A stretch of DNA of 64,000 bases from Bacteroidales bacterium (GCA_028708425.1 JAQVYY010000008.1:7799-71798); one strand, 5' to 3'; positions 17,689 through 34,080 are shown, counted from the stretch's first letter. Notes: generated by a model not told the origin, from the sequence alone. Numbers and translations are program-made.

Positions 17689-17836
17689 TAACCCCAATTA
17701 TTCATCCAAATAATTGCTGTCTCCGACAGCAACTAGGCCTCACAACCAATCTAGTTGCCCAAAATTGGGCTCAACTAAGTCGGGGTAACCCGCATTTGCA
17801 TTTATCTTTACTAAATTTGATGAATAGTGCGGGTTA
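17689..17836 (-). mobile_element. MITE-like repeat family 1, copy 2 (full length)
   Basis: Reverse complement of the family consensus; TA at both ends. Confidence 0.9.
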
Positions 17837-30523: not shown

Positions 30524-30577
30524 TAGCCCCCCCCATTATTCATCAAATTTGTAAAAGATGAATACAAATGCGGGTTA
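30524..30577 (+). mobile_element. MITE-like repeat family 1, copy 8 (left hairpin module only)
   Basis: TAGCCCCCCCCATTATTCATCAAATTTGTAAAAGATGAATACAAATGCGGGTTA. Confidence 0.75.
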
Positions 30578-30661
30578 AATTCAAAATGTCGAGATATATT
30601 GGTTTAATTTCCTATTTTTGATTAATTTTATTCACAAAACCATATAATCATATCTCTCTTA

Positions 30662-32725
30662 ATGAAAAAGCGAATTAAACTCCCCTTTAAAAACGCTGTA
30701 GGTATGCTTGGTGGCTATGCTAAGGATCGCATAGTTGAGCAAATTAAACTAATTGCGTTTATTATATTTTATTTAGTTGCCTTTCAGGTAGTCATCCTAA
30801 GAGTGCCACTTGCCGATGCGTGGTCTATTGCAGGTGGTATTGGTTTGGTGGTTTTGGGTTTGGCGCTATTTCTCGAGGGGCTTATATTGGGGCTTATGCC
30901 TCTGGGCGAAAGGGTAGGTGTTAAGATGCCCGTAAAATTCGGAATTCTCTTTATTTCGATATTTGGAGTATTCCTCGGTTTTGGTTCAACCATTGCAGAG
31001 CCTGCAATTAGCTCATTGCGTACAGCCGGTGCTGGGGTTACCGCTTGGGATGCCCCCATGCTTTATATGCTTCTTGAGCGCCATACACAGGCTCTGGTTT
31101 ATACCATAGGTGCAGGTGTTGGGATAGCAGTGGTTATAGGTATGGTTAGATTCTACTACGAATTTTCAATAAAGCCCTTTATTTTTATTCTTATCCCTGC
31201 TGCCCTGGTTTTTACGTTTTTCTTGTCTTTTGATGAAAAATTAAATTCAATTATTGCATTGGCATGGGACTCGGGAGCAGTAACAACCGGAGCGGTAACG
31301 GTTCCCCTTGTGCTAGCTTTGGGTATTGGTGTTTCAAGGGCTGCGAGTAAGAATAAGGCGACGGGTGGGGGGTTTGGTATTATTTTACTTGCCTCAATCC
31401 TCCCAGTTTTTAGCGTGCTAATTCTGGGTTTAGCTCTCCGTTCATCGTCGCCAGATACAACAACCGAAGCTCATTTCTTTTCGGAAGAGAACAGGGAGAA
31501 TGCGCTTAAACTTTTCGATGATGAAGCCGCTCTTCTAAATCATGCTTTTACTCGAGGAAGTGAGGTTGGTCGCAAATCGTTTTTTGCCGATGAAGCGCTC
31601 TATCTTGAAAACCTTAACCAGCTTGCCAATAATCCCACGGTGTTAAAAGATATGCTTGGCGAAATGTCGTTTGATGCCTGGCTTAGCAAAAGAGCCTCCG
31701 AGAGCGAACGAAAATATATCGCCTCAGTAAAAACCGAACCCTTAGATGTTGCATCGGGGATTCCTGTTTCTAAAGTATTTAAAGAGGAATCGAAAATTGC
31801 ACTGCAGGCAGTTATACCATTAACATTACTGCTGCTTATTGTACTCCTTTTATTCCTTCGCGAAAAATTACGCTTCAAAGATGAGTTTGCACTGGGTATA
31901 GCGTTTACTTTGGTTGGTATGATACTTCTAACTTCAGGAATTCGTTTGGGTTTAGGCCCATTAGGAGGTCAGGTTGGTGCACAGCTACCCAGGGCATTCA
32001 GCAAGGAGGCCAAATTTATTGATAGTAAAATGATTGCCCCATTTGATACCACGGTTGTTTTTAGCACAATAGCGGTTGATGGTTCTAAAGCACAATTTTT
32101 TAACCTTACGCAGGATGGTAAAAATGAGGTGGTCGAATTTATACCAGATAATTACGATAAGGAGAATAATATATACGAGCATGTGATAAAGCGAGCGCCT
32201 TTGCTGGGGCCAAACCTTACTATTTTAGGTGTTCTTCTTGTTCTGCTTTTTGCTTTCGGAATGGGATTTGGTGCAACAATGGCCGAGCCTGCCCTTAATG
32301 CCCTTGGTATAACGGTGGAGGAGATGACGGTTGGTGCCGTGAAACGCTCCCAAATAGTGTCTGTCGTTTCGCTGGGGGTTGGCATTGGTCTTGTTCTGGG
32401 TGTGCTAAGAATACTCTACGATATACCGCTTATTTGGCTTATTTTTCCAGGTTACTTTATTCTTTTGTTGTTAACCTATTTTAGTGAGGACGAATTTACC
32501 TCCATGGCGTGGGATTGTGGTGGTGTTACCACTGGCCCCGTTACCGTGCCATTAGTACTGGCAATGGGGTTGAGTATTGGTGGCGAACTTTTCGTTGTTG
32601 ACGGGTTTGGAATTTTAGCCTGTGCATCCTTTTCGCCAGTACTTACGGTGCTTATCTTTGGGCTAATAACCCGTGCACGTCAAAAACGAATTGTTAACGT
32701 ATCAACCGAGCATGATGATGAATAG
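30662..32725 (+). CDS. Fused double-DUF1538 membrane protein (putative transporter)
   Basis: Two copies of the AEPA...AWD(S/C)G(A/G)VTTG(A/P)VTVPLVLA(L/M)G motif set, separated by a soluble linker. Confidence 0.8.
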   Translation: MKKRIKLPFKNAVGMLGGYAKDRIVEQIKLIAFIIFYLVAFQVVILRVPLADAWSIAGGIGLVVLGLALFLEGLILGLMPLGERVGVKMPVKFGILFISIFGVFLGFGSTIAEPAISSLRTAGAGVTAWDAPMLYMLLERHTQALVYTIGAGVGIAVVIGMVRFYYEFSIKPFIFILIPAALVFTFFLSFDEKLNSIIALAWDSGAVTTGAVTVPLVLALGIGVSRAASKNKATGGGFGIILLASILPVFSVLILGLALRSSSPDTTTEAHFFSEENRENALKLFDDEAALLNHAFTRGSEVGRKSFFADEALYLENLNQLANNPTVLKDMLGEMSFDAWLSKRASESERKYIASVKTEPLDVASGIPVSKVFKEESKIALQAVIPLTLLLLIVLLLFLREKLRFKDEFALGIAFTLVGMILLTSGIRLGLGPLGGQVGAQLPRAFSKEAKFIDSKMIAPFDTTVVFSTIAVDGSKAQFFNLTQDGKNEVVEFIPDNYDKENNIYEHVIKRAPLLGPNLTILGVLLVLLFAFGMGFGATMAEPALNALGITVEEMTVGAVKRSQIVSVVSLGVGIGLVLGVLRILYDIPLIWLIFPGYFILLLLTYFSEDEFTSMAWDCGGVTTGPVTVPLVLAMGLSIGGELFVVDGFGILACASFSPVLTVLIFGLITRARQKRIVNVSTEHDDE

Positions 32726-33923
32726 AGATAATACCACATCGCAAAAGAATTTTTCCCCCTCGAGGGCTGTTTGGAAAACACAACTCGACAAGGGAGTCCA
32801 CTCTCCGCATAGGGTGAGCAGAATAACCTGTATTGCTAACAAGATGTTTAGCGATAAGATTGTTGAGCAGGTTTTTAAGCTGGGCATAAATACTATATTT
32901 GGTGAAACTGGACGAACGGCTAGAGAGTTTATTACTCCCCGAAACCTTGGCCTGCCGGGTTCAACTGCTAAGCTCCAAAGTACTCCTGTTGATGTTTTTC
33001 GGTTTACAGTACAGCGAAAGCAAGCCCGAACGGTTATGGATTACCTTGTGAAGGTAGGTGGATTTAATACACCTGGCAGGGGAACAGTATTCTCGCAAGA
33101 TTTGATAGAGTTCACAAAAAAAGAGCCAATATTTATTGATTTTGATGAGATTAAGAGTGATGTTCCCCACGATATACCCTATCTAAAGAAATTATCCTAC
33201 GTTATTTGCGTGCTTTCCGTTCCGGGTAGCGGCGAGAAAATGGCAAAGGTTGCTCTTGACCTGGGGATATGTGTACCCCTAATTACGCATGGTATTAGTA
33301 ACGATTTGCGCGACCAAATGGGGCTTATTAGAATCACCATCTCTCCAGAAAAAGAGGTGGTGCATCTTATTATGCCAGAGCAGGATACGGAAAGTATTAT
33401 TAAGCTTCTTCTCGAGGAGGGAAGGCTTGATAAACCTGGCCGAGGTTTTATATACCAAACCCCAATAAGCTTCGGATTGATTGATACTCGCATGCGTGTA
33501 GGTAGGCAGCAGTACGCTGCTAGTATGGAGCAAATAATTGCAGCCGTTGACCAGCTAAAGGGTAGTACCTCTTGGCGTAAACGCCTCGATACTGATGGTG
33601 TAGATACTATTGATAAGCAGCTTTGGCTACCCAACGATAACTGCGAAATTTCGGTTGTTACCGAAGAGGATGCCGAGGAACAGTTGAAAGTGGCAGGGAT
33701 GGAGGCAGGTGCCACAGGTTCTACCGTATCGCGTTTAAAGATGATTGTATCTAGGTCTAAGGACAGAAAAGCATCCTCGTTGGTGCAGAGTACTTTTAGC
33801 GTTGCAGCAGAAAAAACCAACGACGTAGTTGATGCCCTGCTTAAGAATAGTGCTGTGGGTGTTAAAAGTTCAGAAAGAGTTCAGGTTTTGGATTCACCCG
33901 CTGCGTATATTCATACATTCTAG
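32712..33923 (+). CDS. Protein with three tandem PII (GlnB)-like domains
   Basis: Repeats ending NTPGRGTVF and LDKPGRGFIYQTPI (with PEKEVV), plus a degenerate third with AGATGST; overlaps the DUF1538 stop; start ATG 32712 or 32673. Confidence 0.65.
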   Translation: MMMNRDNTTSQKNFSPSRAVWKTQLDKGVHSPHRVSRITCIANKMFSDKIVEQVFKLGINTIFGETGRTAREFITPRNLGLPGSTAKLQSTPVDVFRFTVQRKQARTVMDYLVKVGGFNTPGRGTVFSQDLIEFTKKEPIFIDFDEIKSDVPHDIPYLKKLSYVICVLSVPGSGEKMAKVALDLGICVPLITHGISNDLRDQMGLIRITISPEKEVVHLIMPEQDTESIIKLLLEEGRLDKPGRGFIYQTPISFGLIDTRMRVGRQQYAASMEQIIAAVDQLKGSTSWRKRLDTDGVDTIDKQLWLPNDNCEISVVTEEDAEEQLKVAGMEAGATGSTVSRLKMIVSRSKDRKASSLVQSTFSVAAEKTNDVVDALLKNSAVGVKSSERVQVLDSPAAYIHTF

Positions 33924-33929
33924 TGCCAT

Positions 33930-34035
33930 TAACCCGCATTATTCATCAAATTTAGTGAAGATGAATACAAATGCGGGTTATCCCAACATAGTCGCTGCCG
34001 AAGACAGCAATTATTCGAATGAATAGTTGGGGTTA
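33930..34035 (+). mobile_element. MITE-like repeat family 1, copy 9 (central deletion)
   Basis: Both termini intact; the GCCCAATTTTGGGC hairpin region is absent. Confidence 0.85.
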
Positions 34036-34048
34036 AAATACATTTAAG

Positions 34049-34080
34049 CCGACTAGGTTACCGACCTTGGTCGGTTTTTA
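34049..34080 (+). terminator. Probable intrinsic terminator of the DUF1538/PII operon
   Basis: CCGACTAGG...CCTTGGTCGG followed by TTTTT. Confidence 0.6.

Follow-up and report, generated by a model that had tools for sequence, protein, structure and literature searches.

A two-gene operon in a Bacteroidales bacterium probably encodes an undescribed sensor-controlled ion transporter, a view we take because its genes lie side by side in every related genome checked. It occupies positions 30662-33923 of a 64,000-nucleotide (nt) stretch of DNA (GCA_028708425.1 JAQVYY010000008.1:7799-71798), which was analysed as a whole, is called the window here and supplies the numbering throughout. Two open reading frames (ORFs) on the plus strand fill the interval: gene 1, for a membrane protein of 687 amino acids (aa) from the little-studied DUF1538 family, and a second ORF, gene 2, which ends at 33923 and codes for three tandem PII-like domains. 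We are very confident of a functional partnership between the two, and on balance lean towards the combined statement that a cation/proton-type transporter is gated by a dedicated single-chain PII-like sensor; taken separately, ligand-dependent regulation seems reasonably likely, and a cation/proton substrate is close to an even call, if slightly on the doubtful side. PII-regulated transporters and DUF1538 antiport (UmpAB) were both known already, and the new element is the pairing with a triple-PII chain. The two genes are as follows.

30662-32725, plus strand: gene 1, fused double-DUF1538 membrane protein of 687 aa with a UmpA-like half, a linker and a UmpB-like half (ORF, PF07556, sub-cut-off UmpA/UmpB matches, AlphaFold2 model)
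32712-33923, plus strand: gene 2, predicted cytoplasmic protein of 403 aa with three tandem PII-like domains (ORF, homologue starts, AlphaFold2, Foldseek, hhalign, profile)

Linkage of the two genes was assessed in an order-level sample of 101 genomes and among the GTDB species representatives, at least 219 of which hold a relative and whose best 80 loci were examined. The triple-PII gene occurs in 5 of the 101 genomes of the order, each time with a fused DUF1538 gene (~690 aa) directly upstream on the same strand (5/5). Across the 80 loci, which span Bacteroidota, Spirochaetota, Kiritimatiellota/PVC and Planctomycetota, a fused double-DUF1538 gene is found immediately upstream of the triple-PII gene in 79, the 80th locus being cut by a contig end. 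The other DUF1538 loci that were sampled all have PII-like genes directly downstream, with one to three PII-like domains (32/32, made up of 12/12 in Bacteroidota and 20/20 in Spirochaetota, on the same strand), and DUF1538 itself is present in 63 of 301 Spirochaetota genomes (21%). An earlier interpretation made from the DNA by itself (the sequence-only reading) had stated that DUF1538 genes commonly adjoin PII-like genes and had named homologues that are usually unlinked as the outcome that would speak against it; linkage was the rule in both sets, at 79/80 and 32/32, far more often than chance would give. No third gene is conserved among the 80 loci, where the largest neighbour cluster (13 loci) consists of a PD-(D/E)XK nuclease-family protein lying on varying sides of the module.

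The gene layout and the expression data agree with a single unit. The gene 2 ORF as called opens at a GTG at 32673; homologues of 399-404 aa open at an ATG triplet at 32712, so that gene 2 most likely spans 32712-33923 (403 aa), and with this start it overlaps the gene 1 stop codon by 14 nt. Two signals frame the pair.

30613-30620, plus strand: possible Bacteroidota-type -7 promoter box TATTTTTG (TAnnTTTG), read from the sequence
34046-34077, plus strand: intrinsic-terminator-like hairpin of 12 pairs followed by the U-run UUUUUAUUUU (scan, -17.9 kcal/mol, z -4.2; drop in RNA depth)

Expression was read from one wastewater sample with both DNA and metatranscriptome runs by comparing contig depth, a crude measure in a library whose label 'FAIRE-seq' allows possible DNA carry-over. 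RNA contig depth reaches 63-76 over 30643-34040 against 2.5-8 over the flanking genes (about 10-25 times deeper), whereas DNA contig depth in the same sample is flat, at about 180-200, over 29.6-35.5 kb, and a single RNA contig (32528-34040) crosses the junction between genes 1 and 2. Despite the 'FAIRE-seq' caveat, this contrast of RNA with DNA depth favours a single transcription unit made up of exactly these two genes. In run X16 the RNA contig starts at 30643, which is 23 nt downstream of the TATTTTTG box and 19 nt before the gene 1 ATG; TAnnTTTG is what we take to be the consensus for the -7 box, and the promoter is accordingly a putative one. At the other end, RNA depth drops from 76 to 3-7 (about 20-fold) at the hairpin, which is intergenic and sits outside 30662-33923; terminator-like sites as a class are not above chance in the region (6 vs 4.9 expected in the scan). 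The window sequence is also present in landfill, sediment, manure and wastewater metagenomes.

The end of this transcript deserves a separate remark. The RNA contig over gene 2 stops at 34040 with Illumina adapter attached. This stop, 5 nt past a repeat element and 6 nt short of the terminator hairpin, suggests a discrete RNA end and could reflect a processed 3' end or an assembly effect.

Gene 1 matches Pfam PF07556 in two stretches with 343 bits (E = 4.8e-103; gathering score 22.6 bits), and in the whole-genome scan with the same model its halves score 181 and 172 bits. Against the NCBIfam models UmpA (NF041627) and UmpB (NF041628) it scores 208.5 and 132.6 bits, below the equivalog cut-offs of 490/500; its N-terminal half lies closest to UmpA and its C-terminal half to UmpB, so the UmpA-like half comes first. 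We divide the protein as follows.

30737-31432, plus strand: N-terminal DUF1538 half (aa 26-257), UmpA-like, predicted N-in/C-out, with E113 (AEPA), R163 and D203 (WDSGAVTTG) (NCBIfam UmpA stretch, hydropathy, lysine/arginine (K/R) bias, motifs)
31448-31765, plus strand: helical linker domain of ~105 aa (aa 263-368), lacking a hydrophobic segment, predicted non-cytoplasmic (AlphaFold2 secondary structure, linker hidden Markov model (HMM), K/R bias)
31823-32668, plus strand: C-terminal DUF1538 half (aa 388-669), UmpB-like, predicted inverted orientation, with E542 (AEPA) and D618 (WDCGGVTTG) (best Pfam stretch 388-669, NCBIfam UmpB, K/R bias, motifs)
32012-32194, plus strand: beta-rich insert (aa 451-511) in loop 2'-3' of the C-terminal half (AlphaFold2 strands)

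Hydropathy places seven hydrophobic segments in each half, and in the AlphaFold2 model, a confident one (predicted local distance difference test score (pLDDT) 79, predicted template modelling score (pTM) 0.78), two of these per half are helix-break-helix elements centred on AEPA and [WFY]DxGxVTTG. We aligned these motifs across 34 half-domains from every sampled architecture and four phyla, including both halves of gene 1 and leaving out UmpAB itself, and found the Glu, Pro and Asp invariant (34/34) and the Arg of transmembrane segment 4 (TM4) nearly so (32/34). Buried invariant carboxylates at helix breaks are what would be expected of an ion-coupled transporter.

The two halves also differ consistently in the charge of homologous loops. 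Over 40 fused homologues, the K/R value of loop 1-2 is 0.2 in the N-terminal half and 4.0 in the C-terminal half, and that of loop 6-7 is 2.7 and 0.1, respectively; A-type and B-type subunits, unfused and fused taken together (n=17 each), repeat the pattern, with 0.47 vs 3.18 in loop 1-2 and 2.0 vs 0.35 in loop 6-7. From this opposite bias the halves of gene 1 appear to form an inverted repeat, and as each half crosses the membrane an odd number of times and the linker between them has no hydrophobic segment, they should be antiparallel. K/R-rich loops flank TM7 and TM1' on the side opposite the linker. By the positive-inside rule we predict that the N-terminus lies inside, the linker (aa 263-368) and the beta insert (aa 451-511) outside, and the C-terminus inside. 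Matches to the linker HMM recur in nearly all triple-PII loci across phyla.

A Foldseek search of the gene 1 model against the PDB gave no meaningful match (best E = 0.034, TM score <= 0.16), which leaves the fold without a solved relative. The same architecture and regulatory logic might serve another cargo, such as bicarbonate, ammonium, a divalent cation or an organic acid, with the triple-PII protein signalling the metabolic state that goes with it, on the pattern of SbtB and bicarbonate or GlnK and ammonium. This alternative can draw on UmpA/UmpB scores far below the equivalog cut-offs, on a fold that offers no solved relative to constrain the substrate, on the absence from the 80 loci of any conserved neighbour indicating one, on the nitrogen or carbon compounds carried by known PII-transporter pairs and on the fact that the UmpAB assignment comes from a single complementation-based study. 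We nonetheless consider it rather unlikely: cation/proton antiport is the only experimental datum for the family, the one transporter that recurs as a neighbour is a CPA Na+/H+ exchanger, genes for nitrogen or carbon assimilation are missing from the vicinity, and the invariant Glu/Asp (34/34) and Arg (32/34) in every sampled architecture, in an alignment outside which UmpAB stands, argue for a common coupling ion at least.

The identity of gene 2 could not be read from family models. Searched alone against Pfam and NCBIfam, it gave sub-threshold matches only (P-II, PF00543, at 14.9 bits and E = 0.034, below the gathering score of 25 bits; CpaD and EMC1 as noise), so that its identification as a PII protein had to rest on profiles and structure. 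It can be divided as follows.

32805-33113, plus strand: PII-like domain 1 (D1; aa 32-134), with B-loop-like PGRGTVFSQ (AlphaFold2, profile, hhalign)
33183-33479, plus strand: PII-like domain 2 (D2; aa 158-256), the most conserved, with T-loop-region consensus GTGxRDxLGLLRITIPxEKE and B-loop-like PGRGFIYQTP (conservation, profile, hhalign)
33513-33590, plus strand: D2-D3 connector, consensus AASxEQIIAAIDxLKxxTxWRKR, a candidate partner-binding element (conservation, low pLDDT)
33639-33908, plus strand: PII-like domain 3 (D3; aa 310-399), divergent, lacking the PGxG B-loop motif (AlphaFold2, hhalign, profile)

An AlphaFold2 model built with 39 homologues (pLDDT 74, pTM 0.76) has three beta-alpha-beta-beta-alpha-beta domains, and the pTM value implies that they are modelled as one packed body rather than as beads on a string. 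The clear matches returned by Foldseek are all GlnK/GlnB (probability 1.0, TM score 0.6-0.68 over ~100 residues per domain), and the names SbtB, DarA and PstA are absent among the 50 matches listed. A profile of 40 diverse family members, compared with PDB sequences, matched PII chains only and did so with all three domains: D1 aligns over its full length with Corynebacterium glutamicum GlnK (E = 2e-5), D2 with the B-loop of GlnK1, and D3 with GlnZ and with residues 12-100 of Synechococcus PII. The domains are also related to one another by hhalign (D1-D2 E = 7e-13, D2-D3 4e-8, D1-D3 4e-5) and to the single-domain 114-aa PII-like proteins found beside unfused DUF1538 pairs (D2 9e-9, D1 1e-6, D3 3e-4); on the shallow alignment A1, D3 was not linked to the others, and the link is seen only with the more diverse A3. 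PF00543 itself matches 11 of the 40 diverse members at E <= 0.01 (best 6.5e-7). An exhaustive search produced 486 clusters at 50% identity, nearly all of 365-400 aa, so the three-domain chain is an established and diverse family, for which neither Pfam-A nor NCBIfam holds a model.

These results allow most of what the sequence-only reading had said of the two proteins to be judged. Its two DUF1538 repeats in gene 1 are recovered as the two PF07556 stretches (E = 4.8e-103), its multi-PII partner as the three domains found by AlphaFold2, Foldseek, profile and hhalign rather than by Pfam alone, and its overlapping genes with their own terminator as the 14-nt overlap and the hairpin at 34046-34077, just beyond 33923. 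It had further described a self-contained unit with the membrane subunits fused into one chain and the regulator domains into another; no third gene is conserved in the 80 loci, the pair is co-transcribed in the metatranscriptome, gene 1 has two halves and gene 2 three domains. The interpretation that it built on these features stands as far as the two-gene unit, the fused chains, the linkage and the co-transcription go. Its statement that DUF1538 has no assigned function is out of date, given the UmpAB antiporter (PMC5484666) and the NCBIfam UmpA and UmpB models. The comparison with transporter folds by Foldseek that it had proposed as a check gave the gene 1 model no meaningful PDB match.

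Conservation in the gene 2 family is strongest in the T-loop-equivalent region of D2, around the inter-domain clefts and in the D2-D3 connector. A270, D280, W288 and R289 of the connector are invariant in 40 diverse members, and pLDDT falls below 50 at 261-299; high conservation together with low confidence in a monomer model is typical of a partner-binding element, and we infer that the connector is one. The GDGK motif of the canonical PII B-loop (Asp88, Lys90, the Lys binding phosphate) serves ATP/ADP binding. It aligns with PGRG[F/T/S] in D1 and D2, where both Gly are kept, Asp is replaced by Arg and Lys by Phe, Ser or Thr, and the motif is absent in D3.

This loss of the nucleotide-binding Asp and Lys, complete in a third domain with no B-loop motif at all, would suit a triple-PII protein that serves the transporter as an indispensable cytoplasmic subunit, structural or catalytic, in the manner of the RCK rings of Ktr/Trk, with the PII-like fold only a scaffold and not a ligand switch; so would its absolute co-occurrence with DUF1538 and a gene overlap that suggests fixed stoichiometry. 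We regard such a role as improbable, however, since UmpAB alone is active in E. coli (PMC5484666), the top conservation falls in the T-loop-equivalent region of D2 and the inter-domain clefts, which are the ligand- or target-responsive parts in PII proteins, and the operons of unfused relatives also hold a CBS-pair protein, a type well known for sensing adenosyl ligands.

Signalling in the reverse direction was a further alternative. GlnZ-DraG structures are among the fold matches of gene 2, and the membrane protein could be mainly a sensor or anchor (a transceptor) that captures or releases the triple-PII protein for other cytoplasmic targets, as AmtB-bound GlnK does for DraG. It is common for PII proteins to act on more than one target and to be held sequestered at the membrane, and the genome carrying the operon has only one other, weak P-II gene, both of which would favour this arrangement. 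Yet neither a conserved third gene nor a candidate target turned up in the 80 loci, the pair passes from phylum to phylum with just its two genes, and the membrane partner keeps transporter-like invariant carboxylates, so that we hold reversed signalling to be very improbable.

The other DUF1538 loci form a graded series of architectures. In Bacteroidota we found A + B + PII + CBS-pair, A + B + two PII-like genes, short fusions (480-498 aa) followed by two PII-like genes or a fused di-PII, and a 630-aa fusion with a triple-PII gene. Among the Spirochaetota short fusions (n=13), 12 are followed by a di-PII gene (215-235 aa) and one by a 312-aa ORF in which a single PII-like domain was detected, and fusions of 638-717 aa have a triple-PII partner in 6/6. 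The di-PII proteins are collinear with D1-D2 of the triple form, and in two-gene systems it is D2 that the distal PII-like gene matches best. The long helical linker thus covaries strictly with three PII domains, and a short linker or separate subunits with one or two. These unfused and partly fused operons resemble the module of the window in membrane family, invariant motifs, opposite K/R bias and a PII-like gene immediately downstream, and differ from it in having one or two PII-like domains and no long linker, some of them with a CBS-pair protein.

Two individual sets of loci extend the range of forms. In one Spirochaetota locus (L139; G536, C92:1000-9500), a 1094-aa frame holds both DUF1538 halves with an insert of ~1.7 kb between them, and downstream of it stand two triple-PII genes in a row (399 and 403 aa), making an expanded module. 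The unfused A + B pairs of Bacteroidota (L004/L086-L090, L005) are followed by a PII-like gene (114-115 aa) and a CBS-pair gene (128-133 aa), which places two different adenosyl-ligand-sensor folds in one transporter operon.

As the favoured mechanism, gene 1 would be a single-chain form of a UmpA/UmpB-type heterodimer whose halves lie antiparallel in the membrane, and the invariant Glu, Asp and Arg of each half are the residues most likely to make up the ion path, which would be that of a secondary transporter of the monovalent-cation/proton antiporter type. Gene 2 would be its cytoplasmic regulator, the three subunits of a canonical trimer fused into an asymmetric pseudo-trimer that most likely binds 1:1 to the transporter at its cytoplasmic face. 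Occupancy of the sites between the domains by a small ligand would set the conformation of the D2 loop and the D2-D3 connector, which, on the model of GlnK-AmtB and SbtB-SbtA, would in turn obstruct or free that face. Leads on the substrate are the antiport activity of UmpAB, the use of its homologues as markers of saltwater cable bacteria, the CPA-type exchanger near 9 of the 80 loci and the nature of the carriers, many of which, from sample codes, we take to be soda-lake metagenome-assembled genomes or alkaliphiles (e.g. Alkalispirochaeta alkalica and Perlabentimonas gracilis). P. gracilis is a cultured relative, with 80% identity in gene 1 and 84% in gene 2.

Several points weigh against this mechanism. 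With scores so far below the UmpA/UmpB cut-offs, gene 1 belongs to a distant subfamily and is not a UmpA/UmpB equivalog. The activity of UmpAB comes from one heterologous study, in E. coli KNabc and without a PII partner (PMC5484666), and activity without that partner means that a regulator is not needed for the basal function and would modulate rather than enable transport. Given the loss of the B-loop Asp and of the phosphate-binding Lys, sensing of ATP, ADP or 2-oxoglutarate cannot be assumed. The covariation of linker and third PII domain sits badly with a linker predicted to be non-cytoplasmic; a single origin of the long form, followed by its spread, could account for it, or else the predicted topology is wrong. 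Nor can assembly follow a simple rule, since two domains, as in the di-PII relatives, do not suffice for a trimer within one chain, and for gene 2 itself it is the pTM value and analogy that would give a single-chain PII-like pseudo-trimer.

Comparison with known systems helps to place the module. UmpAB of Halomonas zhaodongensis, a DUF1538 pair, was described in 2017 as a heterodimeric pH-dependent Na+(Li+,K+)/H+ antiporter, with activity assayed in everted vesicles and for the Halomonas proteins only (PMC5484666), and its homologues have since been used as salt-adaptation markers in saltwater cable bacteria. Gene 1 shares with UmpAB the Pfam family, an A-type part that precedes the B-type part, seven hydrophobic segments per half and overlapping co-expressed genes, and its beta insert (aa 451-511) corresponds to the longer loop II-III of UmpB (PMC5484666). 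It differs in scoring less than half of the equivalog cut-offs and in joining through the ~105-aa helical linker what are two separate subunits there, so that in function the 687-aa chain would amount to a covalent heterodimer. The dedicated triple-PII gene sets it apart as well, a PII partner going without mention in the UmpAB study (0 occurrences in PMC5484666). In the literature that could be searched, we found no description of the DUF1538/PII-like pairing, of a triple-PII chain or of the unfused and partly fused operon forms.

The likeness to GlnK-AmtB lies in a PII-fold gene that adjoins, and is co-transcribed with, the transporter it is thought to control, and in the loop at the T-loop position being the most conserved. 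AmtB and GlnK are both homotrimers, matched 3:3. Here, in contrast, a pseudo-dimeric inverted-repeat transporter would meet a single-chain pseudo-trimer, as modelled, with symmetry broken on both sides; moreover, the B-loop has lost GDGK, the two transporters come from unrelated families and there is no nitrogen context. SbtB-SbtA offers another precedent for a non-canonical PII-like protein dedicated to one transporter in the same operon. SbtB, a homotrimer of single-domain subunits with a redox R-loop, has a ligand repertoire that differs from that of canonical PII, and SbtA is unrelated to DUF1538, whereas the fold matches of gene 2 are GlnK/GlnB. By analogy, the module may work like either system, but it belongs to neither family.

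PII proteins are among the most widespread signalling proteins, and their understood transporter targets are few (AmtB, SbtA and the cyanobacterial nitrate and urea ATP-binding cassette systems); the module would be a further dedicated PII-transporter pair. A single-chain pseudo-trimer would break the threefold symmetry that defines PII function and so provide a natural experiment on how many ligand sites and effector loops are needed. Gene 1 has the features expected of a dual-topology pair, its members antiparallel, that gene fusion has fixed in place, which makes it useful for studying the evolution of inverted-repeat transporters. The only activity assigned to the family (salt and alkali tolerance, cation/proton antiport) could also be regulated in ways that matter for alkaliphiles and for rumen and wastewater bacteria. 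A bolder version, tentative and in our estimate doubtful, is that this is the third major phylum-spanning PII-transporter partnership after GlnK-AmtB and SbtB-SbtA, in which an asymmetric single-chain PII trimer with three non-equivalent ligand clefts and one dominant effector loop docks 1:1 on an inverted-repeat transporter and the signal, which could be an adenine nucleotide or a second messenger such as cyclic di-AMP (c-di-AMP), is tied to Na+/K+/H+ homeostasis. If this were true, the graded series (one, two or three PII domains; unfused, short-fused or long-fused transporter) would record the stepwise passage from a symmetric complex to a two-chain machine.

Some observations concern the wider genome. 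The operon's own genome (G000; C62:92865-93155, C77:11730-12083) has one other weak P-II match (38.6 bits, 101-aa frame) and a diadenylate cyclase (148 bits), the latter making c-di-AMP signalling available. A link between the module and c-di-AMP remains speculation: the cyclase is also present in 11 of 14 control genomes, and neither DarA nor PstA is among the 50 fold matches listed. In 9 of the 80 loci, from Bacteroidales and Cytophagales (L008, L010, L011, L015, L022, L024, L058, L059 and L069), the module has a CPA-type Na+/H+ exchanger with TrkA_C (PF00999 + PF02080) on its upstream side, at a median distance of ~0.7 kb, a weak hint of cation/proton homeostasis.

The genes flanking the operon in the window are unrelated to transport, with rpsT, radC, upp and a divergent GTP cyclohydrolase I gene upstream and aminotransferase and glycosyltransferase genes downstream. 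In a genome of the same family that lacks the module (G033), examined as a possible empty site, the folE and aminotransferase genes are on separate contigs. A palindromic repeat lies on either side of the operon.

30530-30577, plus strand: 48-nt palindromic repeat, upstream copy, not operon-specific (repeat search)
33933-33980, plus strand: 48-nt palindromic repeat, downstream copy, 10 nt past the gene 2 stop and inside the transcript (repeat search, RNA contig)

The downstream copy folds at -22.2 kcal/mol (z -6.8) and is covered by the RNA contig. We considered these repeats as the boundary of a mobile cassette and rejected the idea. The palindrome, which resembles repetitive extragenic palindromic elements or miniature inverted-repeat transposable elements (REP/MITE-like), has 8 copies in the window where 0 are expected by chance, the remaining ones at 17789, 22396, 24343, 53677, 55182 and 62286, and it is therefore a genome-wide intergenic repeat. 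Metagenome contig depth spikes 40-80-fold over its copies, and the DNA-contig 'joints' that skip the operon have a short side of only 25-26 nt, as repeat copies would give.

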